Assembly (NCBI GenBank): GCA_036172245.1
Contig: JAYWIR010000016.1
Span: 1,488,001 to 1,552,000 of the forward strand
From: Raillietiella orientalis
Lineage: Eukaryota
Length of the DNA stretch: 64,000 nucleotides
Direction of reading: 5' to 3'
Positions within the stretch are counted from its first letter, which is position 1; each line of letters starts with the position of its first letter. The position numbers were made by a program, and so were the translations under genes. Under the pieces are notes generated by a model. That model had not been told where the DNA came from, ran no database searches, and saw only the letters and a list, made by a program, of their open reading frames with translations. This document shows positions 24,682 to 63,720 of the stretch, one piece after another.

Positions 24682-24767
24682 AGAAGGTCCAGAACCAAGG
24701 GAGGAGTGCGTTCAGGAGGCCACCGTTTCCTAGCGACGGTGCATTCATAACCGAGAAGGAAGCCAAG
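24682..24767 (+). CDS. MINDY4B: MINDY4B-like exon (first identified)
   Basis: ttccag|AG AAG GTC...KVQNQGRSAFRRPPFPSDGAFITEKEAK|gtacgg. The phase-0 join gives ITEKEAK-ELRLVCFG (cf. MINDY4 IDLSVAKEIKTLLFG). The acceptor is less certain than the donor. Confidence 0.65.
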
Positions 24768-27700
24768 GTACGGGAAGGCGCAGGTGGGGGTAGGGGGGCG
24801 TTTCCGCCGTCTTTTTCGCGCCCTCATCTCCAGACGAATCCCTCTCTCCCCCTTCCGGGGTGAAACTGACCCCGCTGACCTCATCCACCGCCGGTCGGGG
24901 GGGGGGGGGGAGACCACCTTGGGATTCCTTCCGACTCCCTGCCACTGTGAGGGAGGACTGCAAGACGGTCGCCCGGGTGACCCTTCCCCTCCGAGCCCTC
25001 CCAGGTGTCTGGGAAAGCGGGCAGGAGGGGAGTGTCCCGGACCTCGGAGGAAGGGAGTGAATCGCGCGCTTTCGGTTCGTCACGTGGCCGCAGCTTTCAT
25101 GTCCGGCGGGATCACGCGAGCGGATGCCGCGCTTCCCGACTGAACCAGCCGGAGGTCGAATCGGCACCGGCGAGAGACCTGGTGGAGGTCGCCAGCGGGA
25201 GATCCTGCTCGCCCTCTGGCAGTCGGAAGCGAGAGGCATCCCCACTGCCTCGCAGAGGGCTGCGTCGTCTCTGGGGCGATCCTCCCTCTGGCAGCAGATG
25301 GAGCCGGAACGGGTGGGCGGATCCGCGCTCGGCAAGCCCCGGAACTTCCAGCTGAAAAGGGAAGGTGCTACCGGCTCAGGGAAAAGCCGTAGGTGGTTTC
25401 GAGGTTGGGGATCTGCAGTGATTTGGACGCGCAGGTGGGTCGCGGAAGGCAGGGCGGAAGGCGGAGCCACACCACCTGGTGGCTGCCGACCACAACACCC
25501 CTCCCACGTCTCACTCGGTGAGAGAAAGGGTGGGGGCAGGGAGGCAGCCGACAAACGAAGCGATCCAGAGATGACCTCTGCCTGTCCTCAAACTTCGAAA
25601 GGGTCAGCAGTCCTTCCTGCTACATTGCTGAAAAACGGATCCACGAGCGCCACTGGTGGGCCACTTTTGGTGGGTGGACTCGGCGCTGCGGGAGAAGCGC
25701 CCGGAGCAATCCTCCCTGGCGAATCGAGCGGAAAGCGCCGGTTGCCGTGGGTGGCGGGAGGGCAGCCGCTCGGAAGTGCCGCAGGCAGTTCTCCCGCTGA
25801 GCACTTCCTGCCCGCCGGGGGCGTTCGAGCGTCCTCCCTTCCCGAAACGCTGTCATTCCTGGAAAAGCAAGTCAGCGTAGGCTGCCGTCCCCCGGGTGCA
25901 ACGAGCTCCCATCTTCCTCCTTCCCCCCGCATATGTTACGCCCCAAGAGTGAGAGCAGGGAAAACCGAAGGTCCCCAGCATCCGGAGGGTGTCGGATCAA
26001 GATCTCAGGGTGCACCGAGTGTGCGTGCGCGGGCCGGTGTCTCAAGGTGTCCTCGCTGCGGCTCGCCCACTTCTTCCTCTTGATGAGACTCCGCGATCTC
26101 CATCCAATTCCCGTCTACTCCTCTCTTCCTAGTCCTCGACTTTCCTCCACGCGGGACCCCTATGTGGGAGAGGAAGCGACCGGCGTTATTCCCACGGAAT
26201 CACCCTCGTCCGAGATTCGTCTTTGAAGGCACTACCTGCAACCGGTGTGGCGAGTGTGGGGCGTACATCTCGCTCCGCCGCTCAGGCCGTGACCTGAGCT
26301 GCATCCGAGCGGATGCCCGTCGCGAAGACCTCCCCACACCCGAAGGACGGGTCTCCCGCTGAAGGGAAGCAGGATCTCCAGAGTGTACAGTCCTCCTTTG
26401 TCTGGAAGATCCTCGGCGTCTCCGAGGGCACCGGCTCCTCCTCTCCAGTGCCTGCCGGCCTGGTGCTTTCCGGGAGCCCAGAGGCACCAAACTCTCAGTC
26501 GGGCCGTTATTCGAAGACTAGGTCGCAGCTCCCGATGCTCTTCCGCAGGGAGTGCGAGCCGGAATCCTGCAGAGGAGGGTCCCAAGGAGGAGGGAAGCCT
26601 TCTGTGCATTTCCAGGGGTGCCGAACCACTGCGTTCTCGCTACGCATGGTCTCTTTCATGGTGCTGCCATCTCTCAACGATCTGCCGAACCGCCGCGTTC
26701 GCTTCCTGCGCCCGCTGTTGCTCTCCACTGCTCTCTCGCTGCATCTTGCCCAATGTTTCCTTGGCAACTTCGGACCCTCTCTTCTGCAGCGTTCAATCCG
26801 AAACGGTCCTTCGCGAAGAGAATTCCCAGGAGGCTCCCCTCGTTGCAAAGAGTCTCTGGGCAGGGAAACGGTCCGCAGCGGCTGGTTGCCGGTCTCACGA
26901 GGCGGGGTCACCTCGCATGCAGGGAGCGGTCCTCGTGTTCTCCGTTTCGACTGCAATCCACGCCCTCTAGACTCGGTCCTGACCCAGGCGGGCTCTCCAG
27001 GAACCTTCTCTCCCCTCACTCTTCCTATTTTTCTTTTTTTTTTGGCACCAGAAATCCCGGCCGGCTGCGCATAGAACGGGAGCGAAGTTTCTCCTCGGTA
27101 TGGAAAGTCTCGATCCCAGAACACGCCGTGCATGGACTGCAGGCCCCTGGAATGCCTCCAGAGCCTCAAGGGATCCTCCTGCTCTTCGCACCTCGTTTCC
27201 GCTCTATTCCGCCCGCTTCCGCGGGAGAAAAGCTGACCGGCAAGCTGAACACCAACAACTTTCTCCCCACATCCGAGGAGGCTGCAAAGAAATCTTCTGC
27301 AAAGAAAGTGAGGATCTGGTTGCCCTTCTCTCGCCACCGTCTTTCTTCTCGATGTCTTCCCTGATAGAGGAGCGAAACTCCCGAGGTCTGCTGCGGTTAA
27401 GCCTTTCTAACAGAGGATTCTTCTTCTTGTCCATGCTCATTGTTTTCAAAGCACTCGAAGAAAGGCAACAGTGGGGAGTGTATGTGTGGGGGGGAGTTAC
27501 CTTCTCTGAGATCCACCCGGCCTCTTCATCTCCTCTTCCTGCCGACCCCGCTCCTCCAGGATCCAGGCGACCCTGGAGATCTGCTGCTTCCAGGGTAGCC
27601 AGGTTCCGGGTACTGGCCCAGCTTACGCTTCGAGTGTACGTCTTGGGGCACCGCACGCTTGGGCACACATCGTTCCTCCCTTGGTGAGCCTCTCCCGTCT

Positions 27701-30700
27701 CCTAACAGCCTTGAACTTTCCACGTTGCCACTTTCCTGATCCCACGTGTCGAAGGATTCCGCACAAAGCAGAGTGCACATCGATGCAGGTGGTCTTCCAG
27801 CGACGAGAAGGACAGCCGACGCTCACCCCCCTCCTCTCCCTCGTCTTCTCTTGAGCCCACGCTGGTGTTCTCTTCGCTCTTCGATCTCCGTAAAAGCATC
27901 GCATCTCTTTCTAGAGTGGGCTGGTTCTTGAGGTCGTCATCGGTTCTCCGATGTCTCTTCCCGCTGAGGTGTTTTCCGCTGAGCCCTAGATGCTTCCGCA
28001 AGAGTGTCTCCTTCTACCTTGTTGCCAGGGATACAGTCCAGCTGGGGATGGGAGCGCTGGCTTTGCCCTTTAAAAGAACATCTGATCCCGTGAATGTCCT
28101 GGGACTGGGGAAGCATCCTGCTTGACGCCATCCTTTCCCTTGTGCTCTTCAGACGATAAGACGTGCCCTTCAGGCTGCCGGCGGCCGTTTTGTCACCCGA
28201 GAATTTTCTTCGTCAGGAAACCTCGGAAGGTCTCGTTGTCGCTGCTTTATTGGCTTTCGGGGTCACCGAGCCTGCAAAGTTGGCTCTTAGGTTGCCGCTT
28301 CTGGCGCTGTTCCTTCGTCCATCACACCTGAAATTCTTCCCGGACTTCGTGCTGCACTCGGCAGCCTCGAATCTGCGTTCTGGCTTGTCCCTATCTTCGG
28401 TCTCTGCTCTCACAGGATGCAGATTTCCAGCCAACACGTATCCGCGCCGAGGTGGCATCGTGCCTCGGACGGACTTTCTTTGTCCCCCTCGAAGGAAGAG
28501 GGAGGGATGGTGGAGCATTGGCACTCTGCCTCCAATGGCAGACCAAAGAGGCCACGGACCAAAAGAGTGGCGTCCACCTCGGTCCGCAGACAAAGGACGG
28601 CCTTCCCAGAATCCGCGCTGCTTGCTCGAGAGCGCACGCGGCAGGAACCGACCGCCCGAGCTCTCCTCCCGCGACGGTAGGGACGGTCTGATCGACTTCC
28701 TCAGCCCCGCCCTTCCTGCCCTTCTTGTTCCGAGATCGGTCGCGCCGCCATTCGAGCCGCAGCGATCTTTCATGGCGGCCGCGTTTTCCGGTGCGCAAGT
28801 CTCAGTGTTTGTCGTCACGCACCGTTGTTGCCACGGCTCTTCCGTTCTCTCGGAAACTCCGATCTCCTCATCCCTTCGGTGGCGATGCGAGTATCCTTCA
28901 AGGAAGAGAGAGATGGGCCTCATCATGAGAGAGAGAGAAAGTGATGACGCTGCCTGTATCCATGAGACAAGTTGCCCGGAGGCAATTTTGCGCACACTCC
29001 ACAAGGAGCAGTCACTTGAGGAAATGAGACCCGAGGAGGATGTGGTGTGGCAAGTTACCGAAGCATGGAGAGAGAAAAGGGCTCGTACCAGCAGCCCGCC
29101 GGGAAGGCCTCCAGGTGCAAGAAAGGGTGCTGTCCGCCCGCTGCTGTCCTCTACTGGGATGTTCCTCCAGTCTTTTCGCAGTGGTTCCCAGTTCTTAGGA
29201 AAAAAAACACACATACAATAAAAAAGAGGTGCCCATATGCAAAAAACCGTGAAGAATTTTCCCTGTCTGGACCCTTCTGCGGTTCCAGGAGACTGCTCCT
29301 CGGAGATTTCTTGGTACGAGCCGTGACGTGGTGAAGGTCCCCGGGCAGAAAAAACGGCCGTTCAATGATCGGATGCGAGAGGCAATGGCTTTTCTAGAAC
29401 CACTTCTCTTCCCCCTCGCTGCAAGGAATCTCGGGATACTGCCTGTGGCCTCCCTCGGCTTCTCTCCGAATCGTTCCGGGTCCGCCCGCTCCGCCGGTGC
29501 TCACAGGTCGATGGACAGAGTGGGCGCATGCGTTGAAGAGCGAGGGATTCCCCGGGGTGCGCTTAGCTACTCCTAGGATGAAGTGGTCAAGGAACCGCCG
29601 TTTTCTCTTTGTTCCGTGTCCTGGGGCTCTGCTTGCCCCCTCAGGATAAGCGGTCCTGCTTTCTTCGACGGGATGTGTCGAACCAAGATGGCGGCTTTCC
29701 TTCCGCCCTATTCAAGGCAGTAGCCATCGAAACGCCCAAGTGGTTACCCTGCATGGAGTTCACTCAGCTGTGGAGGGGGGCGCTGGAGATGGCAGTGCCC
29801 GGGATAGCAAGGTAAGCGCTCCTGGTGCCCCAACGCGGCCTTGGAGAGCAGGGCACGGCTGTAGGGTTGCATGGGCGCCCGGTAGCGAGCCGCTTTGTTT
29901 CGCCGCTTCCCGAATCTTCCTCCGTGGAATTGCCGCGTCGTATCCTCAACAGGCTTCCGTGGGTGAGTCCATTCTTGCGGACGGGGTCGCCTCGCGGGAA
30001 GTGGCTAGGGTGATCCGAGAAGGATTGCTGACAGGAGGGCGGCGCAGTGATGCGGACGAGCCAGCGGTGGGCGTCAGGGTTTTCGAGGATTTCTGCTTTT
30101 GGCGAATGCAAGGGCGCGGGATCCGGGTCCAAGAGGCGATGCTCCAGTGGGGTTCGAACAGCCGCGCCCAGACCCTTCCTTCTTGGTCAGGCCCCGTAGG
30201 ACGGGGCCTGCCCGGCAGGACCGAGTGGTCTCGTTCGACGTGGTCTTTGGGAGAGAGCGGGAGAGGAAGGAGGGAGCACGGACAAGTGAGGCAGGCTGCG
30301 ACCTAATAGACCCCGGACCCAGGAACTGCTGCTTCCTTCTGGGGTTCCCCGCTACGACTCTCAGGAACCGCCCACCTCTTCGGAGCGTTCCTCGACGATG
30401 CCATCATCGCGTACAGGGGGGCGATACGGTCAGCGTCGCGCCGAGGGTACATGCCACCAAGTGATCCGAGTCGAGGGTTGTTTGGATGACGAATGGACGC
30501 AGTCCGTTCCTCTCCTTCCTCTCCCTGGGTGTCTCCGAAGAGAGCCTCTTCCTCGTTCTCTCCGGAGGGATCTACCGGAGGAGGTCGCTGCTCGTTTCCT
30601 CCTCCGAGGGGATCTCTCCCTGAGAGAACGAGGAGCTTTTGACGCTCCGGAGAGGCAACCCCCGGAAGGGGTGTCGCTCAGCTACATGGGAACGCTGCGA

Positions 30701-33700
30701 GGTAACTCCCTTCTCCTGAGAGGAGGGGAGGGGTGGATCGGCTCGACTTGCACGACTGGAAGGGGGGAGGGGAACCACGAAGGTAACAGTGATTCCTGGA
30801 AGGATCCCCCCTGTGGGTCGACTTGTGATCCCGGACAGGAAACGGCGGCATCAAGTCGAGTCGCTCACCGCAAGGCATCCTGGTCGCCACGCCCAGCGCT
30901 GGAAGGCATCGAGCCCCGGATCACCCCCCCCTCTGATGCTTTCGGCTCGCAGTCGGACTCATTTGCGAGGCGCGACTCGACCAGCGCCGCCTGCCGAGGG
31001 TCGCCATCCGCCAGGAGCGACCCCAATCGCCTATGCAGGAGCTGCGAACGTGGTGGGGGATCTCTGGGTCATCGCCTCTCAGAAAATGAGCCAACAGCCA
31101 TAGCGGTCGCGAAGAGACAAAACGATGTTGCCAATCCTGAGCCACTGGGGGATCGGCAACCTCCACGCAGGCAACGCCGGGACAGAGAGGAAGCTCCTCG
31201 GAGTGCTCCGAGGGAACCGTCCTGGACATCCCTCGACCGCGCTGGGGGAGACAGGGCAGGAGAGGGGGAGCGAAAGCGTCATGAGGAAGACCCCCTCTGG
31301 AAAAGGAGTGACTGCAACAACAGGAGCCATCCCAGCAGGGCATCTCGGGATCCGGGAAAATGTCGAGGAAATCGGGAACTTCCATGAAGCAAACGAATGC
31401 TCATCAGGAAAGAGATGGACTGGCTGAGGCCTTGAAGAAGCAGCTCCAGGGACACCGGTGCGGCGCACTTGTGCCTCGGAAACCGGATACCCCCGTTTCC
31501 TGTCCGGGATCACAAGTCGACCCACAGGGGGGATCCTTCCAGGAATCACTGTTACCTTCGTGGTTCCCCTCCCCCCTTCCAGTCGTGCAAGTCGAGCCGA
31601 TCCACCCCTCCCCTCCTCTCAGGAGAAGGGAGTTACCTCGCAGCGTTCCCATGTAGCTGAGCGACACCCCTTCCGGGGGTTGCCTCTCCGGAGCGTCAAA
31701 AGCTCCTCGTTCCCTCAGGGAGAGATCCCCTCGGAGGAGGAAACGAGCAGCGACCTCCTCCGGTAGATCCCTCCGGAGAGAACGAGGAAGAGGCTCTCTT
31801 CGGAGACACCCAGGGAGAGGAAGGAGAGGAACGGACTGCGTCCATTCGTCATCCAAACAACCCTCGACTCGGATCACTTGGTGGCATGTACCCTCGGCGC
31901 GACGCTGACCGTATCGCCCCCCTGTACGCGATGATGGCATCGTCGAGGAACGCTCCGAAGAGGTGGGCGGTTCCTGAGAGTCGTAGCGGGGAACCCCAGA
32001 AGGAAGCAGCAGTTCCTGGGTCCGGGGTCTATTAGGTCGCAGCCTGCCTCACTTGTCCGTGCTCCCTCCTTCCTCTCCCGCTCTCTCCCAAAGACCACGT
32101 CGAACGAGACCACTCGGTCCTGCCGGGCAGGCCCCGTCCTACCGAAGCTAGAGAAGGAGGAACATTCCAACTTTGAAGAAACGAGCGCCCAAGGGGCCGC
32201 CTGGGGCCGCAGGAGCGGAGAAATCCGGAGACTTCCTCTGCGCCGAATTGCTCAGACTGGAAGGTCCTCTGGCATTCCGGACCATCTGCCGCAACTCACG
32301 CGAGAGCTTCCGTCCGCCGTTTCGGCAGCATCGGGAAGGGTGGCGGATCCCAGCTCTCCCGCCCGCGGTCATCCAAGCTTGGTGCACCACGGCTCCCTAC
32401 TTCGGAACGGTGCCTCGTCAGAGGCGCACCGTCGCGTATTCCCCCGAGGCACCCAATTCAATGATCCAGGTTCCTGACATCATTGTCGGGGCCACGTGGA
32501 TGATGCCGACGTGGACGATGGTAACTCCCTCTGTTTTCTGGCAAGTCGCGTGGGATTCTCCGAAAGAAGGCGACTCTCGGTCGTCCGATCAGGACAGACC
32601 GCCGATGATGCGTGCCCACGAGAGCAAAAGGCATCTTCTCACAGTCCCCTTCTAAACTCATGCTCGAGGACACAGACAGAATGGTCAGCTCCCATCACAC
32701 CCCAAATCAGACGAGGTCGACAAAGAATGTTCAGCCAGGGTTTGCTCCCTTTCGATGCGAAACGGATGCTGGAGAATCGATTCTTGAACGACTCTGGTCC
32801 AACGGCAATTCCTTCATCCGCGTTGCAATCCTCATTTCTTCTGCTGGAGTCCTTGCGATCTGCGAACCTGCGGTGTGGACGCGAAGACTCGAGTCTCCCG
32901 AGACGAAACCCTCAAAGCGCACACAGTTGGCTACTGATGCTAAGGGCCAGTGTGCCGTGTTTCTATGGCAGAGAACTGAAGTTATCCTCTAGAAGGCTTC
33001 GTTGTCTCTGGCTTTGCCCAAAGCACGAGAGTGGTTCTTGCTCGTAGAACGAGGATTTTGAGATCGGTGGAAGGTGTGGCGGTAAGTGCAAAGAGCGGGT
33101 ATCCAGCACTGGGAATGCACCTGGTCGTCCATCTCAGCGGCGTATTAAGCAAGACCAAGGAAAAAAAGGGGACCCATTCGGGCAAGTGAATGGACCAACG
33201 ACCTCGAGGAGTTTCCTTTGAAGAGCGAGCATCTTTCCTCAGTAACAACAGCTGAGGAACTTGCCTCAATGGATGCCAAGCAACTCATCCGTCATTGAGC
33301 AAAGCATCTTTCTTCCTCCTGAAAGGGAAGGGAAGGACTCAGAGTCACGTACGCTGCTTTCGAACATCAAATCTTCCTTGTTTCCCAAAAGACCTTGCAA
33401 TTTTCTGGCCTATTTGGTTCCTCGAATGATCCGAAAGCAGCTCTTGGAATGAACTTTTTCTTTCAACTGTCGATCGTCCCAAACGGCAAGCTAAGGTTAC
33501 CTTCGAAATTATCTGGACCCATTCCCATTGCCGATAGGGTTCCATTACCAAATTTTTTACAAACAAATGGAGAAAATTATCTCGCCACCAACCGAGGTAT
33601 TGCTAAACAAAAGATTGGGAGGGGATGGGGAGGAGAATCACAGAATTTCAGTCTCGAATCTAAAGATAGAATCGAATGGACCGAAGGAAGAATGAGTCTC

Positions 33701-36700
33701 GAAGTTCTTGAAGCATCAGATGAAGAGAACATCAATATTTCGAAGAATACTAGACAAAGAAGATTCGCAGTCAGGATGCTGGAAGATGATTCCACAGCCG
33801 AAAGAGAAGCCGAGTTTTGTGAGCCACGAGGCAGGCAAAGAGGACTCGGTACCAGTCGGTTTCAAAGCGAAGATCTCCCAAGCAACCGTGCTGAAATCAC
33901 CCAATCAAGAGAATGACGGCATGACAACCTTGGACGCTATTATAAACTGCACCCTCCAAGGAACAGAAGATGCACTTCGAAAAATACTGGAACCACGAAT
34001 CGCACCCTCCAAACATGTACTGAATGGCTTAGAAAATCAACAGAGGTGCGAAGACCGAATTCAAAAGAACATCGCATTCTTCTTCATTCGCTGCTTGAAA
34101 ACTTTTTCTGGCCCCGAATGGGCTTCTCTCGACTCGGGTCGACAAGGCAACGCCGAATCATGGAGACGGACAGTCCGTGCTTGCTGCACTTATCAACAAC
34201 AGTAGGCGGGCTTGGATTATAAGAACCAGGAAACGCACACGAAAGAAGCTGGGCGTCCAGGAATCGAGGCATAACGAATTCTTGTCATCTGTCTAGGCAC
34301 CAACCGTTTACCAAGTCCTCGAGCTGAATCGCCAACGAAAAAGATTCTCAGCAATCAGATCTCGAGGCTGACTTTTCGGTCCCCATGGTCACACCGAAAG
34401 CGTCCAACCCTTTGGCAGCACTCATTTGTTTCCACGTGACCAGTTATCGACGTCCATTTGACTTCCCACGAATCCGTAGGGAAGCGCGCCTCCGTCAGCA
34501 CCATCAAGCCCCTCGTTGCCTGCCGGTGAGGTGGTAGCATGACATCACGAAAGGAACTCGAGCTGTTCCCTCTTGGAAGGCGCACGATATCTTGGTGAAG
34601 TTTATTCGGTTTGCGCGAAATACGTGCTCGAAGGTGCGAGTCATCCTCATGCTGACGGTAGAGGAAACAGAAATTTGAGCCGAAATCATGATAGATCTCC
34701 AGGCGGCCCTCCCATTCACATGGTGCTTTTGAGTCAGAGGCCAAACTGCTCTTAGCTAAGAGGAAGGCAAAACTTCAGTGCTGAAAATAAGCTCGAGTTT
34801 AAGAATGAATGAACTGAACTCCACAAGGATGTGGTACGTTGGCAACTGATATCAACATCGTCCTCCGCATCATTTTCTAACGATGCAGGTGATCTTTTTT
34901 TTTTTTTTTTATTGGTGTTTTAGTTATGGCATTTAAGATCTAATCAAGCGATGCTGCCGAACCAAGTTGAAATCCGGATGAAGAGAACCTTCTACCTGCT
35001 AAGACCAAATCCTTTTCCATATCTGGTTGCGATGGACGGCAACCCATCGGTAAACACATCAACGTTATACCCTAACAAGCTAAAGATGCAGGCAGCCCCA
35101 ACTTGTTCTGAGCAGTAAAAGCGTTTGCAACAGTTGATAGGATGAACTTATTGCTCTGGTTTCAATCCGAGCGGTGCATTATGGACCAAGCACCTCGCCG
35201 TTTCTAGTTTTAATAGCTAACAAAAGTGAAGAGAACGGTTTCTTGATCCTTGAGAGCTAAAACATGCTTGGGAATAGTTCAAACATCTGGCAAAACTCTG
35301 GTAGATGTCAAAGATATCGCCACTGTGCTGAAAAGAAGTGAACTTTGGCTTTTCTAAAGCAAGCCAATGCTTATCTTTGAAAATCAATCTTTGGATGAAA
35401 CAACTGTTCAAGTCATTTCTAGCTGGAGCTTCACACCAAAATTGGCAAAGAGAGCTGAGAGAGAGAGAGGGAGAAAAAAAGGAAGCTGTCTTTTTTTTCT
35501 GATTTGTTACCTGTACACTCACTCTTGAAAGCAGAAATGGCACACCACCAGCCAAAGCAACAAAATAAGCACGAAATGAGCTAACAGTTTGTTAAGTTCC
35601 TTTAAGATCATTTATGTATTTTGGGCTCACTCATAAAATCATTCTTGCACTTGATAGAGAGTAAATAGAATATTTCGATCTCGTGTTGGATCGTCTTCCA
35701 CTTCACCTATCCTACTGGCTATTCAGAAAGTAACAATTTAATAGCCGTACATACTTATCCTACTTAATAACCCATTAATAATTAATTATGGGTCATTTCG
35801 AATAATTTGGAGGGCACACCATTTTAACGAATCGCTCAGTCTGTTAAATAAACGGAACAATCATTTCCGCTTTCAAAGCCCTGACTCGCACTTTGCCGTC
35901 TGTCTCGCCACTTCAAGGTAGCAAACTGCTAACGTGCTGCCATCTCCGGTTGCATCCTCTAAGTTCCGCATGAGTGCCCGCCGCAGTAACTTGCTTACTT
36001 GGAAAATTTCACGAGACCCTGTGACATTCTCGGTAGCACAGCGGTCAGTATTTTTCTTGCCATGCGGGAGACCGGGATTCGATCCCCTGCAGACGCGGAG
36101 GACTTTGCTTTCTCATTCCTTCGTTGATGGAAGATTGTTAGCATACTCCACGGTTGCGCCCATCCCCTCGTGGTTGCTGGGTGGATGGCGACGGAGCTCT
36201 TTCTAAGCCTATGATACCAAATCGTTCAGTCTCTCTCACAAAGCAGTCGTCTACAAAAGTGGGTAGACAGGAGAGCTATTGTTCTTTTCTGGGCGTAGAT
36301 ACTTCAGCTCTCGCCGAGCGCATCGTCTCGAGTCTGCGGAAAGTGAGTGCGGTTTCTCATTCTCCCCATCAGCGCGAACAACACATCGCACCAAGGCACT
36401 TCGGTTAATCTCGGTAGAGATTCTGACTGTCTCTGCTTGGCTCCCACTCTGACCACCAAGGAAGAATTGCGCGAACCAGCTCAGCGGAAGTGGCCCCGCT
36501 CCGCAGCAGCAGCCCTCGCCAGTCTCGCTCCTCCTACCAGTGGAAAGCCGGCTCCGTTTCGAGAAACCAGCCGCGCACGAGTAGAAGAGTGAGCCCCAGG
36601 AGCCCTACCTGTAGTGGACCCCGTAAGACGACAACGAAGTAGGGGGACGCGTTCGCTGTCTCGCCAATTCGTCTTCCGCGGAGGGTCCACCACGGGCGCT

Positions 36701-54700: not shown

Positions 54701-57700
54701 CCGTCGGATGAAGAGCGGGATTCTCCATCATGAACCACGGTCTCCCCTTCTCCTGCGGTAGCATCTGCAGTTCATGCCGGGTTGCTTCTACAGCCGACTT
54801 GCTTCTTCCAATGGATGCTGCCAAAGTTCTGAACTCTGGTCGTTCAGCATCATCTCCCCGGTGCGTTTTCGCCTTCTTTCTCGGAGGATCTCAATTCTTG
54901 CAGCACCGCAACTTTTCCTGGATCTCAGAATCGCGAAGGTCCTACGAACTCTACCTGCGCCGAAGACAAGGACACCTTTAGACGAGAGGTGGCGAACCGG
55001 ACCTCAGAGCCTTCTCTCTTTCCGTTGTTTCGCTTTTTCCCAGAGCCGTCGGGAAAGGCCTCAAGTAAGCAAGTGGAGTACAGTTCCGAGATTCTCCCTC
55101 GCCTTGCCTAGGCGAGGGAGAATGGGGGTCCACTTCACTTGCACGGGTCCACTCCTCCCCATTGTTCCTGCGAAAACCTCGACTCGCAATCCTGTCGCAC
55201 TCAGCCGGAATTGGGTTCCCGTCGAAGACTCAGGGGTCCAGGGTGTGAGGGAGCGCGACCCTTCCGATGCTTTCTCCATATTTTCTGTACATCCAATTCA
55301 CGTCGTTCCCGTCGGACACGGCCGGTGGGAGCGCTGCGCTTAGCCAAGTCTCCGGAATGAACTCGCGTGACCCTCCGGACTGCACGCACTCTCCTCCACA
55401 GAAGAAGAGGAATGCTGTCCAGCTAGGTGAAAGGTCTTCTTCCCGTGGTTTCTGAGTGGCCCGTGGTATCTTAGAGACGACTCCTCCTGGCGCGTTTCGA
55501 TCACACGAGTTTCCCTCCGAAGGTGGCTCAAGGATGATTGTGTGCGAATTCGCCTTCTCTGACAAATGCTTTCCAGCCTGTTGCTCCATCCAAGGGTCCT
55601 TTTGGCCTCTTTTCTGTCTTTGCTGTTTTCCTTCCAGCTTTTTTTTTTGGTTCGCTGAGTACTTCAAGAGCCGTCGCGAGCCTAGCGGCTCACGCGGATC
55701 TTCAACACCACCGGAGGGTGCGTATAGTTCTTCAAGACAGGGGGTACCCCGGGAGGGGAGCACCCTATAAATCTAGGAAGGACTTCGGAGAAGGGAGTCC
55801 GTTCTCTCCCGTCTTGGAAGGAATCACTGAAGGGAACAACACCTCCACCCTGGTTGTCTCCGAAGGGAACCTCGAAGGAAATCTCCTTCCTTTTTCTCTC
55901 CACCGGAGGGATCCCTGGAAGGGTCCGCTCCATTTTTCTTCTCCAGAGGGAACCCGCAAGATAGTCGTTCTTGGTTTCCTTCCCCTGAAGAGAACCCCGA
56001 AGGGACGCTTGGCGGTCTTGGCGCCGTTGCTGGTTGCTCAGCAACAACACGTCTTGTTACAGCTCCATAGTGGTGCTCATCCAAGGGAGAGGGGCATTGC
56101 GACGTCTCCCTGCGTGGGTTGCACTTTGGGTTGCGCAGTCGACACGTCATGCGGGCTTCGGGCTGCAGACGGTGTTGCTGCACCTGCACCTGAGGTGGGG
56201 TCTCATTTGCTGGGTACGGGACGTCTGATACGCGATGTCTGGTCAGAAACAGGCGCAATCTTTTTTTCCTGGGATAGCAGAATACTAGTAGACGGCGGGG
56301 TAAAACAACAACAACAACAACAACGGAGGAGAGGGCCAAAAATAGGACAGAATTCGTCGCGAGCAGCGATCCTCATTGGACCTTGAGGCATTGGCGGACA
56401 GAAGGCCACGAAACTCGGAACGGGAACAGCGAGATTCGGAGATGCGTGTCGCGGAGGGCAGTTGGCAGCGGTTGCAGGAAGCACCCTGCTCTACAAGCCC
56501 GAGGTCATGCGCCAGGAGTCCAGCTGTCCCAGAGCTGGCTTTGCTGCGTTTGCGGTGCGCTCGAATGGCGAGAAATGGTGTTCGAGAATTTTCCATCCAG
56601 CCCCTCTCGCGTCAGACGGGCGAACGGGGCCCGCCTCGCCCGGTGGCCGAGCCTCGCTGCGCGCGTTCCGGTCAACTAGTTCGGCCGAGATCGAAGCTCT
56701 CTCAGGTTGGCAACTGACGCCACTGCAGGGCCTCGCGCGGCATCACCGTGCAGCAGTGGCAGTTTCCTGCTTCTCGTCCATGTATTTAATCTTACTTTAC
56801 TCTATTTTAATTTTGCTCTCCAGAGGTCATCAACTCGGGGAGGAAGTCAATTCAGGGCTACCAGCCCTTGAACTGACGTTCGTTACAAAAGAACAACAGT
56901 TGAGTCATCAGCTCGGAACGAAAATGCCATGCTTCCCCCCCCTCCCTCTGTATCTTCCTGATGCAGTTTTGGTGGGTAATTTGATGCGAGTTTCGTGGCG
57001 GCAGCAGCAGCAGCCTTGTCGATCTTGAATGGCAGCGCTAAGCGCCGGCATCCGCAAAACATCTCGTAAAATAGGTGCCGTTCGCAGCGCTCTCCACGCA
57101 AGGGCTGCCGTATGACGTTACCGGAGGTGGACCGTTCCCCTCTGCGCTTGGCGGGGGGGAAAGGACAGAGTCATTTCGTCTGAGATGTCCCTGTGGTCCA
57201 GTGCGGGTCCACGAGGGTTCGGGACACGTCGCATTCGCATGAACCCGTCGTCAGCGACCTTCTGGTAAGCCGGTTCCGCGGGGCCGGCGGGGAGATGTCT
57301 CCGGGGCAGCCCTAGCAGCCCTCACCGATCTCCGGCAAGCGGAACATCCCGCACGCGTCTGTAAGGGAAGGCTGGGTCGGAGGGAGCAGAGTTCCTGAAT
57401 CGGAAATTTTTTTTCCGGGACAAACTCCGCTTCTGGCACTCCGTTCACACCTCCTCTGCCGCTCCCTTTCCTCGAATGGCCACGTGACTTTCCCTTTCCC
57501 CCCTTTCGCTTGACACGACCGGCTTTTCGTTCTGGTTCTGGGCGGAGTGACAACGACGCTCATCCACCGAACCCACTGAACCAGAAAGCAGCAGCAGCTG
57601 CAGTGCAATCTGTGCTTCCTTCAGCCCGCGAACCTTTCAGACTGAAGGAGGAGCTTCAAGACGTCGACATCGAGGTCCTCGTCGAAGCGACGTCAGCCTT

Positions 57701-60700
57701 CATGCACCGCCTGAAGAGCACCATTGCTCTGGTGACCTTGGGCATCACGGGGATGGCCACTCCTTTCTTGCACAATGGCATCATTTACAGCTCGGAGGAA
57801 AGTTGCTATGTAAGTTGAGAGCCTCCGCTGCGGATCTGCATCTCCAGCACACGCTCGTAATTAAAAACCGTTCGTTCCGGCTGCTGTCAATACGTGAGTG
57901 TTTATCAGGTCGGCAAACAGCGCATTTGTCCATCGGTAAAAACACACACACACACACAGACACAAACACGCGTTGGGTGTCGAGAAAAAACATAGAACGT
58001 TTGAAATAAAACTGGATCACGCAAAAGGTCGAGGCGTCTGGAGACTACTCCAGAAATCCCCGGAGTAAACCAAGGCACAACCCATATTTTATTGCTCGGA
58101 GGGGAAAACCAGAAAAAAAAAAAAAAAAAAAAAAAAGGTGAGAAAATACGATGAAGTTCTTCAAACAAAACACTGGAAGGTAAACAACACGAAATTTTGC
58201 AAAGGAAACAGTTCAATGTAAACAAAGCATGAAATTCTGCAAAGAGAACAGTCCAATGTAAACAACATAAAATTCTGTACGCGAAGCAGTCAATGTGGGT
58301 ACACGAGAGAGAGAAAGAGAGAGAGACAGAGAATAGAAGAAAAACAAAAAGAAAAAAAATACACGGATGGTGTTTTTCAGGGCAGAAAACGAATAGGGAT
58401 ATTGACCCGTTGTGAAATTGGTTTCCTGTTAACCAAGCAGGAATACTCTTTCAAGGACAACAAAGAGTTGGTAAGTTGTTTCCTATTTCAACGCGTGCCG
58501 TGTGTGTACCTGTCGTGTGTCGTGTCCTCATGTCGTGTGTGTACTTGTTTGGGGCGTGTGCATGTTGTATGCTGCGTACTACTGTGCGTAGTGTGCTCAT
58601 GTCGTGTGCATGTCGTGGTTGTGTGCTCATGTCGTGTCTTGTGCCCATGTGTGTGTACCTGTCTTGTGTCGTATGCATATTGTGTGTTGTATGCCCATTT
58701 CGTGTGTCGTGCGCCTTTCGTGGTTGTGTGCTCACGTCGCGTGTCGTGTGTCTATCGCGTGTTGTGCACCTGTTGTGTGTACTGTGCCTGTAGTGTTTGT
58801 GGCTACCAAGCGTGTAATTGATGAAACAAAAAGAAAGAAAGAAAAAAAAAAAGAGGAGGAAGGGGGGGGAAGAAGAAGAAAAACTAAAGAGTTGAACTTC
58901 GAACTGAGCGGATTCCCTTTCCAAGGTGGGGTCACGTTTGAAGGAACCATTCTTCCCCATCTGGATCGTCTGCGTTCAGGATCAGTTCGGGGTCCTGTTC
59001 AAGCTGAAGAGGGATCTTCTGACGAAAGACTGCGAGGAAGAGAAGGGATTCGACCTCCACTATTACAACTGCACCTGCTACCAAACGACCGCGGTCACGC
59101 TGACCATCGAGCGGCACTTCCAAGCTCACGAAGACAAAAGAATACCTCCATTGGAAGTGCTCATAAGAACGAAGTAAGTCGTGGGATGCGTGAGCCTCAG
59201 GATAGAGAGGAGCCACCCTCGGTGCCTTCCAATCCTCCTTCCGTGGTTCGTCCACTCTCGACGTACCCGTCCAGCCCTTCTTTCCCACTGACGCGAACAC
59301 CTGCCGAGCGCATCAGCCGAAGGCAGATCCTTTCCACCCGAGTGTTGCACGAACAAATCCTGCTCAAAGATGACACGCACGAACAAATCGTGCACGCACA
59401 CAGGGATGCTCGTGATCCACTGGGATGCGACGCTGGCTCTTTTTTCTTTTTCTGCCACAGGAAGCGCCGCCATCCTCCGACTCTTGGAGAGCGCGTGCGG
59501 GATGGTTTTGACGAAGCCGTGGACTGCGGTGCACAGGTCTTCGCAGCGAGCTTCGCCCGAATCAGAGAGCTGCTGCCCATCTGCTCATCCATTGCTAGGA
59601 CGGCCAGCTTCCTTCCCCGTTTTTTTTTTCCCCGGATTGTCTTCCGTTCCTCGGGATAATGGACGAGTTTACTGAGTTCCGCTGGTCATGTGTCATCGGG
59701 TCATCGATTCGCTCAGTTTCCGCGTTGGCAGATGCAAGTTTCACCGCGTCGGAATCTTCACGGAAATCTCCAGTCCAGCGCTGTCCCCCAAACCCTGCTT
59801 TATTTCTCGGGATGCTCTCTAGAAACTCTCTCTCGTCCCTACTGAACTCCTTCTCGTTACTTTGGAAACTCCAACTTGATCCCTAAAGCTCCAAGCGGTC
59901 CACCGTTCCTCCCTTTCCAACTTGCTGAGCCACAGGTTGCTGTTGCCTTAGCTCTTTCGTTTCCAACGGGAAGTTTCTCCATGGGTACTCTCCGGCGCTT
60001 CTCCGCCTCCGTGATGCTCGCCCGGACGAGAACTCAAAGAGCTTCTGCTTCTTTTCCTGGAAACCGGAGCCTCAAGCTGAAGCTGTGGCGAAGTGCCCTC
60101 CAAATCCTTGGATCCATTTTCCCTTCGTCCCCCCTCCCTACGTGGACTACTCGGAGAGAAGGCGAAGGGATCTTCACGCGCCTCGTGGTCACTGATCCAA
60201 GACGAAGCATCTGCAGCAGATTCCGCTGTTTCTCGACGCTGATGCCGGACGTGGGTTTCTCCCAATTTCCAATTTCCGAGGAGCGAGGCTTCCGCGTTGC
60301 CGGGGAAGGGCCACTGCACAAAACGGCGGGGTCCAAGAATGAGGTGTTCCTTGTTTCCGGGAAGGCTTTGTCGGACTGTGCGGTCCCCAACCTTCCGTTG
60401 ACCCTTTCATCGCGCCAAGCCTCTTGGTCTGGTTCCTGCTGTCGCTCGAGGCTGGAGGTCTTCCCCTGGCGTCTCGACACTCCTCTCGGGAGGTGTCCTA
60501 GATGCTGCTGTCACTAGGTCATACGTGTTTCGACTTCTAGAGGCGAAGGAGGTTGCGATTGCTATCACTGGGGTGTGCCACAGCTTCCTGCGCCCAGCAT
60601 CTGAGAGCTTTCGCATGCAGCCTAGAAACGTCTTCCCTGGCTTCTCTTTGGAGCTGGAGATTGCCTGCCACAGGAGGAGGAACCTTGGTCGGGGAGCCTG

Positions 60701-63700
60701 GGAGGGGGAGGCAAGCCGGGAGTGGAAGAGCCCCCTGAAAGGGTTCCTCCGGGAGGAGGCGAGGCGTTTTTGCAGCAGCCTCTCGGGAGATGAGCTCCTC
60801 TAAAGACGCTGTCGGTGGCTGCTTCCGCTGCTTTTCCTGAAACCATTCTTGTCCAGTAGTTGGCGCAGGAGACGTTCGTTCGGAGGCGTGGGGACGGAAC
60901 TGCCAAGGGTGGGAGATCAGATCGCATTTGGGAAGCCACTCTGCCGCAAAACAGAGACCTGGACACTCGCCACACACACGCTACAGATGAATCAGATCAG
61001 ACGCATGCGGAAGAAAAATAAAGTGCCACAGCCACCGCTGCATGGCGACCGACACTCTGGACCAGCAGTGCTGTCTCCAGATGAGCCCTTCTCCCCTTTG
61101 TTCCCGGAAACTTCGCATAGCAGAACTCAGCAATGTTCCGGGAATGCTGGATCAGTGCCTTAAGTATGGTGGGAATGCGTCTCGGGGAAGATGCTCCTGC
61201 CATCCCCATCCTGCGAGGAGGGAGGCGCCCATGCTTTCCTGAATCGAGAAGAATTGCAGGAAGGCAAAGACGACAGCGAGGGCGGCCGGGAGGCGTCGAT
61301 TCCGGCGGGTTCGGAGGAGGCCTCTTTTCCCGGTACCGCGACTGGCACGCCAGACGGGAGATGCGACAAGAGGCCGTCGGGAGCCATGCCGACGGCAGCT
61401 AAGCCGTTTGCTCCTCTAGACGGCCATCTTTTTGTCGGACCCGCCTAGGAACGCCGAGCCGAGCTCGGGAACGCGAACGAAGAGGGCGGGACGTGGGAGG
61501 AGGAGGAAAAAAAAAAAAGAAAAAGAAAACGCGTTGCCTGGAGATGACCGTCGACAGAGAGGTCACCTGCTAACGGGAGAGCGGCAGACCTCGCTTTCGC
61601 TCCTCGACATCTGCGCTGCCAGCAGGAAGAGAGAAAGGGAATAAACATCTCCTCGCGGCTTGCTTCCCTTCCCTTCAGCTTCTTCCCTCCGCCACCAGCG
61701 CTGTCGGCGCCGAGCTCCACGGAGCCTCTGGAAACTGCTCAGCTGCTCCAGAAACTGGCGCAGCTCTCTTCTGGGACCGATCCTCCCTTCTATCCTCTTC
61801 CTTATCGGGATATCGCCCTTCTTCCCGTCCTGTCCTCCTCCTTCCGAAGAAAAGAGTCCTCTGCTTGCGCTCCAAGCGGGTCCCGTTTTCTGTTCCCGGA
61901 GGAGAGAGGAAGAAAAAGGCAGGGGGGAGGGGGGAAAGAGGGAAAGGGGGAGGCGAGAGAAATCGTTCTCGGAGGCAGGGAAAAAGCTATTTATAGGTCC
62001 CTGGCTCCAGTAGGTGGCGGCGGAGCCCGAGGAGGCATCCCCCGCGAGGACGCGCTCGGTCTGCGCTCTCCTGCCCTCAGCGGCGGCGACAGCGGCAGCA
62101 ACGGCTCGAGGAAGATTTATGTGCGCTCCGGCGCGAGGGAGGGGGAACCCTGCGAGGAAGAGGCGCACGCGTTCAGGCGCGCGCGAGCCACTTCCTGCAT
62201 CCTGCCGCCGATCATACCACGGGCGTCCACGCGCTACCTGCTTCCTCAATTAGCAGGAGGGGGCAAAGGAGGAGGAGGAGGAGGAGGGGGGGGGGAAGGG
62301 GAGGGCCAACCGCGCACTATCGCTCGATCTGACCTGAGCCTTCCGCGCGTCTCTCCGGGAACCTTTCCCTACGCTCTATCCTCCTCCTCCCCCAGGTGCG
62401 TCCGTCCCCTCGCACACGAGAGTAAACGCTCGCGAGAGAAGGAAGAGGAGGAAGATATCTCTCCTCGGCCTTTTGGCTATGATCAAGGAGGAGGAGGAGA
62501 AAGGTGGGAGGGGGAAGACGCCTCCCGAGGTTTCGCCTCCCCTCCCGACGACCCCACCACCCTCCGATCCGTTCCTCTTCCCTCCTTCCCTCTGCCTCCT
62601 TCTCTATTTTCGGCTGCTTCTCGCGGAAAGCGCGCGTCACTCTGCGAATTCCCGGTTCTCGGAAATCGAACGCGCGCGCGGACTCGGGAGGACTGCATCG
62701 CCGCGTCACACTCCGGAGAGCGGCACAGCGAAGGTCCCAGGCAGGGTGGGGTTGCGCTCTCTTCTTCAGGAAAGGGATGACGGAGCCCTCGCGAAGAGGA
62801 CATGGGAGGAAGAGGAAGGAAAGAGCATTCCGATTTTCTCCTTTCCCTTTCTTTTCCTTCCGTCTTCCTCCTTTCCTTCCCTTCTCGCTCCACTGCCTCT
62901 TCTTCCTGCCCCCCTTCCTCCCACATCCGTTTTCTGGGCGAGGAGTCTGGACGGCTCGGGACGAAGTCGCATCCTCAGTTCCCCTGCCGATCTTTAGGGG
63001 TCGCTTCTCCCGTTTTCTCTTGCGCCACTCCTCCCTTCCGTCCTCCTTCGTTCCCCATCCTCTTCCCATTCGCTCCAGGAAACCACGTTTGGCTGGAGAG
63101 ATCTTTTGTAGGGATGCTGCTCGGAGAGGAGGTGCGAAATCGGGAAGGGAAGAAAGGGGGAAGAGATTTCCTCCCCTCCCCCACTGTGCGAACTTCTCGT
63201 CCGAAGCGATCGCTACGGGCTCTGCAGGTGCCACCGCTTCAGGTGCGGTCGACCTCCGACTCTTGGAGCTACTTCGAAGCGACGAGGTGGCACGCGTGCC
63301 ATGCGCTCCTCTGGGGGATCCAGGAAGACGTCCTTCTCTACTCTCCCTTCCCTGAGGTCCTTCCATCCTCCCGAAGGCGGGCGCATGGTCTCGACGTGGG
63401 CGCGCCCGCTTCGCTGCCTCGAGCCGTTTGCGCCGCGGTCCCCCCCCCCCCTTCCTTCGGCTTGTTCGTCACCCGCTCTCCGCACGGAAGGCTTTCCCGG
63501 GGTGGTGAGCCTCGCGGGCGATCAGTCATTCCCTTCCCTGCGGGCCTCCGGAGGGGTTATTCCGGAAAGTAAGTCGCACGGGTGTGAGAGAGGAGGAGGG
63601 ACTGTCGCGGCCGCCGGAAGGGGGCGCTTCCGGACCCGCGGGGCGCGAGTGATCGCCCTCTTCCTTTCCAGGTGGGAAGACGCTTCCGTCGGCTGGAACG

Positions 63701-63720
63701 GATGCAGCCCATGCGTCTGA
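24682..63720 (+). CDS. MINDY4B: MINDY4B/FAM188B2-like (MINDY-3/4 family) probably inactive deubiquitinase; at least 9 exons over about 39 kb, 5' end unresolved
   Basis: Exons 24682-24767, 38392-38603, 46025-46208, 49313-49378, 49458-49528, 57641-57809, 58381-58470, 58926-59173, 63672-63720. All are AG/GT bounded and phase compatible, with no internal stops, giving about 391 aa. The protein follows MINDY4 domain order: ITEKEAKELRLVCFG...VQAYFLKHLLF...DVLWK...ADGCTEK...GLLMFLYSLVMSKT...ITGMATPFLHNG...EIGFL...VGSRLKEPFFPIW...FDLHYY...PPLEVLIRTKWEDASVGWNG. Confidence 0.85.
27500..29230 (-). mobile_element. Degenerate RLE-type non-LTR retrotransposon relic (pre-RT and N-terminal RT)
   Basis: LFLRGGQRKSVR, PSEV...KTAAGSLKGTSY (cf. 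F+..EV...TAPGPDG++Y), IPSW and CIDV..A occur in order on the minus strand. Confidence 0.45.
30196..30845 (+). repeat. 650-bp inverted duplication, arm 1 (probable inserted copy)
   Basis: Near-identical reverse complement of 31493-32142. The ORF track gives identical peptides on opposite strands, with one visible difference (SSFSQG vs SSFPQG). Perfect hairpin CAGGCCCCGT-AGG-ACGGGGCCTG at the outer junction (30188-30210). Confidence 0.95.
31493..32142 (-). repeat. 650-bp inverted duplication, arm 2 (probable native position)
   Basis: Reverse complement of 30196-30845; spacer is 647 bp. Confidence 0.95.
33280..34620 (+). pseudogene. Decayed SNF2-family (CHD-like) chromatin remodelling helicase pseudogene nested in a MINDY4B-like intron
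   Basis: Fragments in helicase order across frames: NFLAYLVP, YLDPFPL, KILEPRIAPSKHVL, GFSRLGSTRQR...LLHLSTTVGGLGL* (cf. FLLSTRAGGLG), LEADF, VIDVHLTSHESVGKR (cf. V.IYRFVTR.SVEER), SRKELE. Several stops and frameshifts. Confidence 0.45.
36027..36100 (+). pseudogene. tRNA-Asp-like pseudogene or tRNA-derived SINE head
   Basis: TTCTCGGTAGCACAGCGGTCAGTAT...TGCCATGCGGGAGACCGGGATTCGATCCCC resembles tRNA-Asp (TCCTCG.TAGTATAGTGGT.AGTAT..C.GCCTGTCACGCGGGAGACCGGGGTTCGATTCCCC). A and B boxes are visible; acceptor and anticodon stems are broken. Confidence 0.6.
37600..38380 (+). mobile_element. Possible degenerate non-LTR RT fragment
   Basis: FSPED...AKTLG and ALSPESTGDDEG..E weakly recall RT domains 0-2; very decayed. 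Confidence 0.3.
38392..38603 (+). CDS. MINDY4B: MINDY4B-like exon
   Basis: tttccag|ELRLVCFGPQVSRVPEWLKYGFLFREDSSPLSYGLLAPRTPARGLLSMVQAYFLKHLLFGRDFPGSKGRE CC|gtaaga. Confidence 0.88.
39270..40580 (-). mobile_element. Degenerate RLE-type retrotransposon relic (C-terminal RT to CCHC knuckle)
   Basis: GVKELCGL (cf. GVKQGCPL), SFQDEL (cf. YADDL), ALETKVPCRQ...VSSWHIAG, TQCR...HLTVIAAGC. Truncated by repeat copy C. Confidence 0.5.
40595..41110 (+). repeat. Unclassified interspersed repeat family, copy C (diverged)
   Basis: AATCCAGGAAGGCTCCGAAGG...CCGGAGGGAACCCGGAG...CTGAAGAGAACTCCGAAG...GGTCGACTTCCA...ACCCACGACGCAC. Confidence 0.6.
41450..44930 (-). mobile_element. Near-full-length but degenerate RLE-type non-LTR retrotransposon
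   Basis: In order on the minus strand: LHGLYAVNR, AHKL..LVANGR, LARHHRKRFGD..R (cf. WLD..NAFGS.PH), RVPE...ITY, RVDKC, SCLKEG, CRLHNV (CCHC/RHN), IPDFV...VLVTFSPF and IWIGSS (RLE). Confidence 0.55.
44991..45331 (+). repeat. Polypurine tract containing three exact 85-bp tandem units
   Basis: Units start at 45042, 45127 and 45212. The only T residues fall at 45096, 45181 and 45266 (85-bp period). Confidence 0.9.
46025..46208 (+). CDS. MINDY4B: MINDY4B-like exon
   Basis: tttccag|G KDRLQPSKAAQHFFLACAIKDVLWKISSRCKQECVVALCRDTPSLVPDDDGTYVADGCTEK|gtagcc. Confidence 0.88.
47150..49200 (-). mobile_element. Degenerate RLE-type retrotransposon RT/post-RT relic
   Basis: WIRKGLP/AKVCPL (GIRQGCPL-like), FAHE, SAELGQKV (cf. 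S.L.PWQK) and SLPS..GAGNPL in order on the minus strand. Confidence 0.4.
49313..49378 (+). CDS. MINDY4B: MINDY4B-like exon
   Basis: gcgcag|MMFFRFSDEDNIQRFLEQNIEK|gtaaag (66 nt, phase 0-0). Confidence 0.85.
49458..49528 (+). CDS. MINDY4B: MINDY4B-like exon
   Basis: tttcag|FTEERGCGLLMFLYSLVMSKTTD AG|gttcgt; cf. the family motif G+ +LFLYS+++S+. Confidence 0.88.
51900..53900 (+). mobile_element. Degenerate RLE-type retrotransposon RT relic
   Basis: GRRRKAPKKFPARPV (K.D....RPI), KKRREVLDHWL, FHGGC, SKHLGVLSG (KYLGV..G) and TWLPKRR in RT order. Confidence 0.45.
53950..55300 (-). mobile_element. Probable N-terminal zinc-finger region relic of an RLE-type element
   Basis: SLHGPFKC...GRTQRLDG resembles the GPF.C zinc finger seen at about 33190. 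Confidence 0.3.
55610..56010 (+). repeat. Unclassified interspersed repeat family, copy D
   Basis: TCTGTCTTTGCTGTTTTCC...GGTTCGCTGAGTACTTCAAGAG...TTCTTCAAG...CCCTATAAATCTAGGAAGGACTTCGG...ACCTCCACCCTGGTTGTCTCCGAAGGG...GAAGAGAACCCCGAAGGGACGCTT. Confidence 0.75.
57641..57809 (+). CDS. MINDY4B: MINDY4B-like exon
   Basis: tttcag|A LKEELQDVDIEVLVEATSAFMHRLKSTIALVTLGITGMATPFLHNGIIYSSEESCY|gtaagt. Confidence 0.88.
58180..58296 (+). repeat. Three degenerate ~38-40 bp tandem units (intronic)
   Basis: GTAAACAA(C/AGC)A..AAATT.TG.A....AA.CAGT.CAAT repeated three times. Confidence 0.7.
58381..58470 (+). CDS. MINDY4B: MINDY4B-like exon
   Basis: ttttcag|GRKRIGILTRCEIGFLLTKQEYSFKDNKEL|gtaagt. Confidence 0.88.
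58490..58800 (+). repeat. GT-rich degenerate simple repeat (intronic)
   Basis: GTGTGCTCATGTCGTGT-like units. Confidence 0.75.
58926..59173 (+). CDS. MINDY4B: MINDY4B-like exon
   Basis: ttccaag|VGSRLKEPFFPIWIVCVQDQFGVLFKLKRDLLTKDCEEEKGFDLHYYNCTCYQTTAVTLTIERHFQAHEDKRIPPLEVLIRT AA|gtaagt. Confidence 0.9.
59250..61050 (-). mobile_element. Degenerate RLE-type retrotransposon relic in the last MINDY4B-like intron
   Basis: CGEC zinc-finger remnant (~60970), then KIPSPSLRVVHVGRGDEGKMDPRIWRAL (IP..W....K....WRPI) and weaker downstream RT remnants. Confidence 0.45.
62457..62487 (+). pseudogene. U2: U2 snRNA 5' fragment (nt 1-31)
   Basis: ATCTCTCCTCGGCCTTTTGGCTATGATCAAG versus U2 ATCGCTTCTCGGCCTTTTGGCTAAGATCAAG, 28/31 identical. 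Embedded in a GAG/GAA tract. Confidence 0.75.
63672..63720 (+). CDS. MINDY4B: MINDY4B-like terminal exon
   Basis: ttcctttccag|G TGG GAA GAC... completes RTK-WEDASVGWNGCSPCV* (cf. MINDY4 RTKWKGASVNWNGSDPIL*). Confidence 0.88.

Follow-up and report, generated by a model that had tools for sequence, protein, structure and literature searches.

We analysed a 64,000-nt window of the Raillietiella orientalis genome (assembly GCA_036172245.1, contig JAYWIR010000016.1, here C16, positions 1,488,001 to 1,552,000; coordinates are those of the window unless a contig is named). It holds a nine-exon gene on the forward strand, predicted to encode a member of the MINDY4B family. Exon 1 (24682..24767) is an internal exon, entered in phase 1 and left in phase 0, and is the least secure of the set. 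It is followed by exons 2 (38392..38603), 3 (46025..46208), 4 (49313..49378), 5 (49458..49528), 6 (57641..57809), 7 (58381..58470) and 8 (58926..59173), and by exon 9 with the stop codon (63672..63720). The eight introns measure 13624, 7421, 3104, 79, 8112, 571, 455 and 4498 nt, with phases of 0, 2, 0, 0, 2, 0, 0 and 2; all begin with GT and end with AG (seven acceptors read CAG and one AAG), and the only intron of the short type, at 79 nt, precedes exon 5. The joined coding sequence of 1175 nt occupies 3.0% of the 39-kb span and gives 391 codons without an internal stop. A sequence-only reading of this DNA had proposed nine exons with canonical splice sites and compatible phases, a stop-free protein of about 391 aa, and introns of about 13.6, 7.4, 8.1 and 4.5 kb; the nine exons, at the place it gave, and the eight GT-AG introns were reproduced.

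Six of the eight exon peptides scanned matched the Pfam family PF13898 separately and in profile order, with E-values from 4.5e-24 to 0.1. The matches were exon 2 (profile positions 2–60, E 1.9e-12), exon 3 (71–125, E 2.8e-4), exon 5 (148–169, E 0.021), exon 6 (177–217, E 0.0044), exon 7 (225–242, E 0.1) and exon 8 (248–333, E 4.5e-24). Against a curated cut-off of 27 bits, exons 8 and 2 scored 85.5 and 47.3 bits, and the four further exons were colinear with them; exons 1 and 4 gave no match on their own, and exon 9 was too short for the scan. With a MINDY4B profile hidden Markov model (HMM) built without the window sequence, removing any one of exons 2–9 lowered the score of the gene model by 26–126 bits (exon 3, 61; exon 4, 27; exon 5, 52; exon 6, 59; exon 7, 36; exon 9, 26.5). 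Because six of eight exons match PF13898 colinearly and each of exons 2–9 adds to the score, the exon set is not the product of chance. Exon 7 sits in an AT-rich patch of simple repeats, with a GC content at third codon positions (GC3) of 0.53 and a flank GC of 0.44, and the C-terminus in exon 9 coincides with the C-terminal end of the homologues. Judged on its sequence, the MINDY4B locus is a real, intact gene spread over 39 kb, and the model fixes nine exons of a gene that would be seen only piecemeal by six-frame translation or by methods tuned to short introns.

To place the protein, exon 8 was searched with HMMER against 1.84 billion representative sequences, giving 196 matches (150 listed), whereas a word-indexed search with the same exon found no homologue. 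Names were checked for 10 clusters drawn from the 150 listed matches: the top cluster and four others were MINDY-4B, and the Papilio cluster was FAM188B2-like. For the whole model, the best BLASTP match was the Tachypleus MINDY-4B-like protein XP_076335696.1, annotated as an inactive ubiquitin carboxyl-terminal hydrolase (E 3e-78, with 376 aa aligned at 40% identity). Proteins from crustaceans, millipedes and insects came next, at 35–38% identity; the closest homologues are 380–460 aa long. In a quick IQ-TREE analysis without bootstrap (68 rows, after removal of fragments and of isoforms that were nearly the same), the protein fell within an 18-row MINDY4B clade with a Shimodaira–Hasegawa-like approximate likelihood ratio test (SH-aLRT) value of 99, apart from MINDY4 and MINDY3. 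Within this clade, a 13-row subclade joined it to all six named arthropod rows (SH-aLRT 98), and its pairing with Tachypleus was weak (82). The clade is retained in chelicerates, myriapods, crustaceans and insects. A PF13898 family search of the genome returned seven candidates, all in two loci, namely the single-copy MINDY4B gene and a MINDY3 paralogue on a second contig, C5.

The protein shares with the MINDY4B/FAM188B2 proteins of Tachypleus, Penaeus and Bemisia a full-length alignment at 37–40% identity, an apparently short N-terminus, the same C-terminal end, the lack of a catalytic cysteine, membership of the same clade and, as inferred from gene-model breakpoints, common exon boundaries. 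It departs from arthropod homologues in a seven-residue insertion in exon 6 and a longer branch; the exon 4 segment, absent from the Papilio model, is present here, and the catalytic histidine that insect MINDY4B rows retain is missing. The PF13898 domain and motif order are shared with MINDY3 and MINDY4 (FAM188A/B), but there is no EF-hand insert as in MINDY3; the nine exons, among which no start exon was found, show no long N-terminal region of the MINDY4 kind. The earlier assignment to the MINDY-3/4 C-terminal domain is borne out by the six ordered PF13898 matches and can be narrowed to the dead MINDY4B clade.

Closer examination of the catalytic columns supports this narrowing. In the available text of PMC4942677, MINDY3 and MINDY4 are K48-selective cysteine deubiquitinases, and C51 and H287 are the predicted catalytic residues of human MINDY3. 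We fixed the cysteine and histidine columns on the strength of that source together with the solved MINDY3 chain 9rmd, whose alignment agrees with the C51/H287 columns. In the alignment, the window protein has arginine in place of the cysteine (exon 2) and glutamine in place of the histidine (exon 8). The cysteine is present in none of the 18 rows of the MINDY4B clade (17 other residues and one gap), and 14 of the 17 ungapped rows carry lysine or arginine at the nucleophile column; the histidine is kept in three of 18. Among rows outside a 19-row group, cysteine is found in 48 of 49 (one gapped) and histidine in all 49, and the MINDY3 paralogue on C5 also has both residues intact. Trichoplax retains the cysteine and not the histidine; Bemisia retains the histidine and has a cysteine one column earlier. 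By this alignment, the window protein would be a pseudo-deubiquitinase lacking both catalytic residues, and so an additional member of a known MINDY4B pseudo-enzyme clade. The available part of a review (PMC8424594) counts MINDY4B among K48 cysteine proteases without comment, an assignment the alignment does not support; the appropriate label appears to be a dead MINDY4B instead of an active deubiquitinase.

Signs of selection on the gene are indirect. Codon positions differ strongly in GC content, with 289 of 392 third positions (0.74) being G or C against 155 of 392 second positions (0.40; p 9e-22); the introns stand at 0.58. In neutral simulations with substitutions only (2000 runs per divergence), the reading frame and splice sites of a copy survived 5% divergence in 1.4% of runs and 10% divergence in none of 2000. 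Together with the silent changes in a copy of part of exon 1, described below, these signs give the claim of purifying selection made in the sequence-only reading some backing, although of an indirect kind.

Exon 1 is the weak link of the model. Its HMM gain of 8.9 bits places it joint first among 913 upstream donors and first among the 172 good donors, a filter that was chosen after the data were seen. That score was equalled by eight of 10,035 control donors and by none of the 1,927 with a good donor. Two cruder tests ranked exon 1 fourth of 1416 and fourth of 901, and its contribution to the full model is just 4.5 bits. Its 28 codons compare with 28–30 codons in the matching segment of seven homologues; its acceptor has 13 pyrimidines in 15 positions, and an acceptor giving a similar geometry is present for six of 230 good donors. 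Breakpoints in the gene models of homologues coincide with introns 1, 3, 4, 7 and 8 and with the exon 1 acceptor; this acceptor is where isoforms of Penaeus and of Bemisia part, and two horseshoe-crab models part at the donor of the same exon. The isoform breakpoints agree with the earlier prediction of an upstream junction in phase 1. We discarded another possible first exon, with its end at 35324, for its poor donor and lower score. An open frame of 394 codons that passes through exon 1 (23679-24860) shows no credible Pfam match or homology upstream of the acceptor.

The 3' half of exon 1 and the start of intron 1 lie in a low-copy duplicated segment (24724..25823) with three other matches, all on C16. 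One of these, some 100 kb upstream (C16:1409668-1410231), repeats the last 44 nt of exon 1 together with 510 nt of intron 1; it is 76% identical overall, and its 14 exon codons keep their amino acids. The exon part has two differences in 44 sites, neither of which changes an amino acid, against 85 in 487 for the intron part (Fisher p 0.03); 26 of 443 overlapping intron windows are as alike as the exon part, and a bias from the alignment edge is possible. The copy has its own upstream AAG, which could give a 57-nt exon with phases 0-0.

The introns hold little recognisable repeat. BLAST against 675 kb of the genome marked 1625 of 37,864 nt (4.3%), compared with a mean of 6.1% and a median of 1.6% among 40 pieces of 10 kb drawn at random from 18 large contigs, and a mean of 7.4% in the 15 of them that are GC-rich; the database included loci selected for matching these introns, which favours the introns. 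The same search marked 26% of the 12.2 kb upstream of the gene (12.5-24.7 kb). All searches pooled, with the best ~39 candidates scored in each whole-genome DNA search, marked 4185 nt (11%) of the introns, or 4835 nt (13%) including an inverted repeat. What was found comprises SINE-like (short interspersed nuclear element) pieces, simple repeats, a young inverted repeat and the duplicated segment whose other copies all lie on C16. The SINE-like pieces, in introns 1, 2 and 5, total ~1.8 kb and include a decayed tRNA-headed copy in intron 2 (40600..41299, reverse strand), recognised by searches and alignment. In intron 5, alignment identified the 3' part of the family (55597..56010, reverse strand), the best 39 of whose 4239 candidates were 72–82% identical. 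Intron 2 also holds a purine-rich simple or tandem repeat (44991..45331). The SINE-like family is high in copy number and non-coding, with overlapping open reading frames (ORFs) that have no Pfam match. We take it to be a tRNA-derived SINE family, which it resembles in being dispersed, ~0.8-1 kb long, with a B-box-like head in four aligned copies and an A-rich 3' end, and from which it differs in that its head was missed by ARAGORN and Rfam.

The inverted repeat in intron 1 (30176..32162) has 677-nt arms containing short SINE-related pieces and a 633-nt spacer; it is young, with 12 arm differences, nine of them in the outer 20 nt. A second young inverted repeat upstream (13255-15129) has arms of ~270 nt and a spacer of 1337 nt. 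With arms 96–98% identical, the two may be foldback elements, products of inverted duplication in place, or errors of the assembly. Upstream of the gene lies a nest of long and short interspersed nuclear elements (15121..21606), outside the gene model, in which a decayed LINE (long interspersed nuclear element; 15121-17277) is interrupted by a SINE copy (~16450-17172), with a second SINE copy at 20606-21606. Searches for retroelement proteins gave little in the introns. No retroelement Pfam domain was found in any of the 245 ORFs of at least 100 aa from 13.5 kb onward (out of 561 ORFs of at least 60 aa) or in 89 shorter ORFs at 32.9-36.5 kb. The 111 LINE ORFs from the same genome gave two weak intronic matches (E 0.014 and 0.036), and tblastx, which recovered the upstream LINE, added nothing in the introns beyond the SINE pieces and a single match of 140 nt. 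A search for the RNase H family typical of long terminal repeat elements matched nothing anywhere, controls included, and is hence uninformative; Rfam and ARAGORN gave no match in the window.

The introns are thus mostly not recognisable transposon DNA, and a very old origin in transposable elements is neither proven nor refuted. The description of the surrounding DNA as decayed retroelement sequence held for the 12.5-24.7 kb upstream and failed for the introns, 4–13% of which were marked. The proposal that the introns were inflated by transposable-element insertion was not sustained for more than roughly a tenth of their DNA, as recognisable repeats are no commoner there than in random genome pieces and no retroelement protein domain was found. 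The locus is better described as a gene with long introns; a transposable-element graveyard was not demonstrated.

The gene differs sharply in composition from its neighbour MCCC1, which lies 12 kb away on the opposite strand. By spliced alignment, the aligned part of MCCC1 has 11 introns of 43–58 nt; the earlier figure of 33-57 nt was right that they are tiny and wrong in its range. MCCC1 has a GC content of 0.40, a GC3 of 0.30 and an observed-to-expected CpG ratio of 0.23, compared with 0.57, 0.74 and 0.86 for the MINDY4B span. The third gene in this three-gene comparison, MINDY3, has nine exons (C5:783716-790655, reverse strand), with an AT-rich 5' half and a GC-rich 3' half. Its GC3 rises from 0.18-0.48 to 0.64-0.87 as the flanks become GC-rich, and therefore high GC acts on resident DNA. 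Its introns measure 54–2809 nt, and kilobase introns also occur in its AT-rich DNA.

The closest known pattern, by analogy, appears to be that of the low- and high-CpG gene classes of the honeybee. According to the available text of PMC2975444, honeybee high-CpG genes, which are hypomethylated and narrowly expressed, have introns about 10 times as long as those of low-CpG housekeeping genes, and repeats are not the explanation given there. The window resembles this arrangement in that the compact, CpG-depleted housekeeping gene MCCC1 lies near a long-intron gene that is not depleted of CpG. It differs in that the short introns are extreme (43–58 nt), that LINEs and SINEs are abundant, and that GC, too, changes sharply between the compartments on a kilobase scale. 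As far as the honeybee excerpts go, and with the introns of MINDY3 in view, the contrast in intron size is not peculiar to MINDY4B.

We therefore favour, with a probability of about 0.7, the reading that this arthropod has one MINDY4B orthologue, located here and intact, whose long introns would reflect its place in a compartment that is rich in GC and not depleted of CpG, and in which genes of weak or narrow expression may be little pressed to stay compact. The composition of the introns is directly observed and is mostly single-copy sequence, with some SINE fragments, locally duplicated segments and simple repeats; the cause of their length is what we infer. MCCC1, which is compact, lies in the AT-rich, CpG-depleted housekeeping compartment. 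A 39-kb gene would then be unremarkable in a 210-Mb genome with compact housekeeping genes, and its layout, by analogy, ordinary for a tissue-restricted arthropod gene. The two genes, separated by 12 kb, would neatly illustrate how a compact low-CpG gene and an expanded high-CpG gene can be neighbours within an arthropod genome.

Several results weigh against this reading. Within MINDY4B, the correlation between GC3 and the GC of the flanks is not significant (rho 0.21, p 0.59, n 9), and a methylation difference between the compartments is read from CpG depletion. The start exon was not found, as 13 ATG-bearing upstream candidates could not be distinguished; the end branch of the protein in the tree is long (1.35), and at 1% divergence a simulated neutral copy was intact in 43% of runs, so that a gene lost only very lately would have the same appearance. 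On the side of the repeats, the 675-kb BLAST database has limited sensitivity to old transposable elements and the own-genome LINE library represents a single portion of the diversity of LINEs. Profile HMMs for LINEs returned no credible match, and even the remnant known to lie upstream escaped them; the genome is LINE-rich (3358 reverse transcriptase candidates), and the visible repeats are already old, at 66–84% identity. These last points would suit a functional gene with introns built mainly by retrotransposon insertions that have decayed past recognition, since older insertions would escape detection. The SINE-like pieces in three introns, the LINE/SINE nest adjoining the gene upstream and an intron GC of 0.58, close to that of LINE loci (mostly 0.51-0.56), point the same way. 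We nonetheless consider this account unlikely, if credible, given that 87–96% of the intron DNA has no detected second copy, that the ORFs lack retroelement domains, that the LINE ORFs and tblastx recovered so little, and that high GC is imposed on resident codons too, so no transposable-element source is required.

The missing start exon, the long branch and the lack of an AATAAA signal until 8 kb past the stop codon would also fit a recently dead or dying single-copy pseudogene with no disabling change so far. To this we give almost no weight, because the frame and all 16 splice sites are intact, the codon-position structure is strong, the exon 1 duplicate differs from the exon at silent sites only, with far more change in its intron part, and the clade is retained across four arthropod groups. 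It is very unlikely, rather than negligible, that exons 2–9 are real and exon 1 is a chance match in a low-copy repeat, which would remove the 13.6-kb intron and leave a gene of ~25 kb. Half of exon 1 does lie in the duplicated segment, whose copy ~100 kb upstream scores equally (9.1 vs 8.9 bits), and its ranks in the cruder tests and its small gain to the full model are what a chance match might give. Against this stand its first rank among good donors, its pyrimidine-rich acceptor, the fit of its length and both phases to the segment set by the Penaeus, Bemisia and horseshoe-crab breakpoints, and a duplicate that is without the 5' half of the exon.

If the locus is an intact MINDY4B gene, its protein would most likely lack catalytic activity and serve to bind ubiquitin or as a scaffold. 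It would do so in a restricted cell type, with sperm or the ciliated cells of sense organs the probable sites, as judged from vertebrate expression data only. The relevant excerpts report MINDY4B enrichment in hair cells of human and zebrafish (PMC12764537, PMC4619078) and its detection as a protein with its own cell-type pattern in vertebrates (bioRxiv 10.64898/2026.05.26.727663); the zebrafish identifier was retired (PMC10299642). By this analogy, a role in ciliated cells might extend to this arthropod. MINDY4B is little studied, and the literature found, as far as its available text goes, mostly names it in expression lists. The lysine or arginine at the nucleophile column, one alignment column, invites the speculation that MINDY4B binds ubiquitin. 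In a decidedly doubtful extension, this residue would clamp the free carboxylate at the C-terminus of ubiquitin, and the protein would sense or buffer unanchored ubiquitin in the ciliated cells of sense organs. If true, MINDY4B would be more than a decayed enzyme, namely an ancient ubiquitin sensor or buffer. This arthropod would keep the dead paralogue as its sole MINDY4-type gene, the PF13898 search having found this locus and MINDY3 only, within long, GC-rich and mostly single-copy introns that also house an AT-rich, gene-like island. The basic residue conserved where catalysis has been lost is a cheap, testable lead.

That island, in intron 1 (34750..35850), has a GC content of 0.39 and no second match in the genome search. 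It contains a candidate nested gene on the reverse strand (35220-35611) with two exons, 108 codons and a 68-nt intron, a GC content of 0.39, a CpG ratio of 0.20, a hydrophobic N-terminus and several cysteines; it found no Pfam support, and an Atlas search returned nothing at or above 0.9. Just downstream, a forward-strand stretch at ~36025-36100 has A- and B-box-like motifs and, by eye, resembles tRNA-Gly, though neither ARAGORN nor Rfam called it. Palindromes like the RFX X-box number seven in the window against 1.1 in shuffled sequence; being scattered over its whole length, they locate no promoter. Upstream of the gene, a 1.07-kb segment (21718-22785) is 94% identical to C16 ~1377600-1378660, which adjoins another SINE/LINE nest. 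On the reverse strand, 4921-5265 matches RAM/RAMAC, the mRNA cap methylation mini-protein (PF15320, E 1.6e-7), and 1957-2667 matches the Spin-doc zinc finger (PF18658, E 2e-5), probably as the remnant of a DNA transposon.

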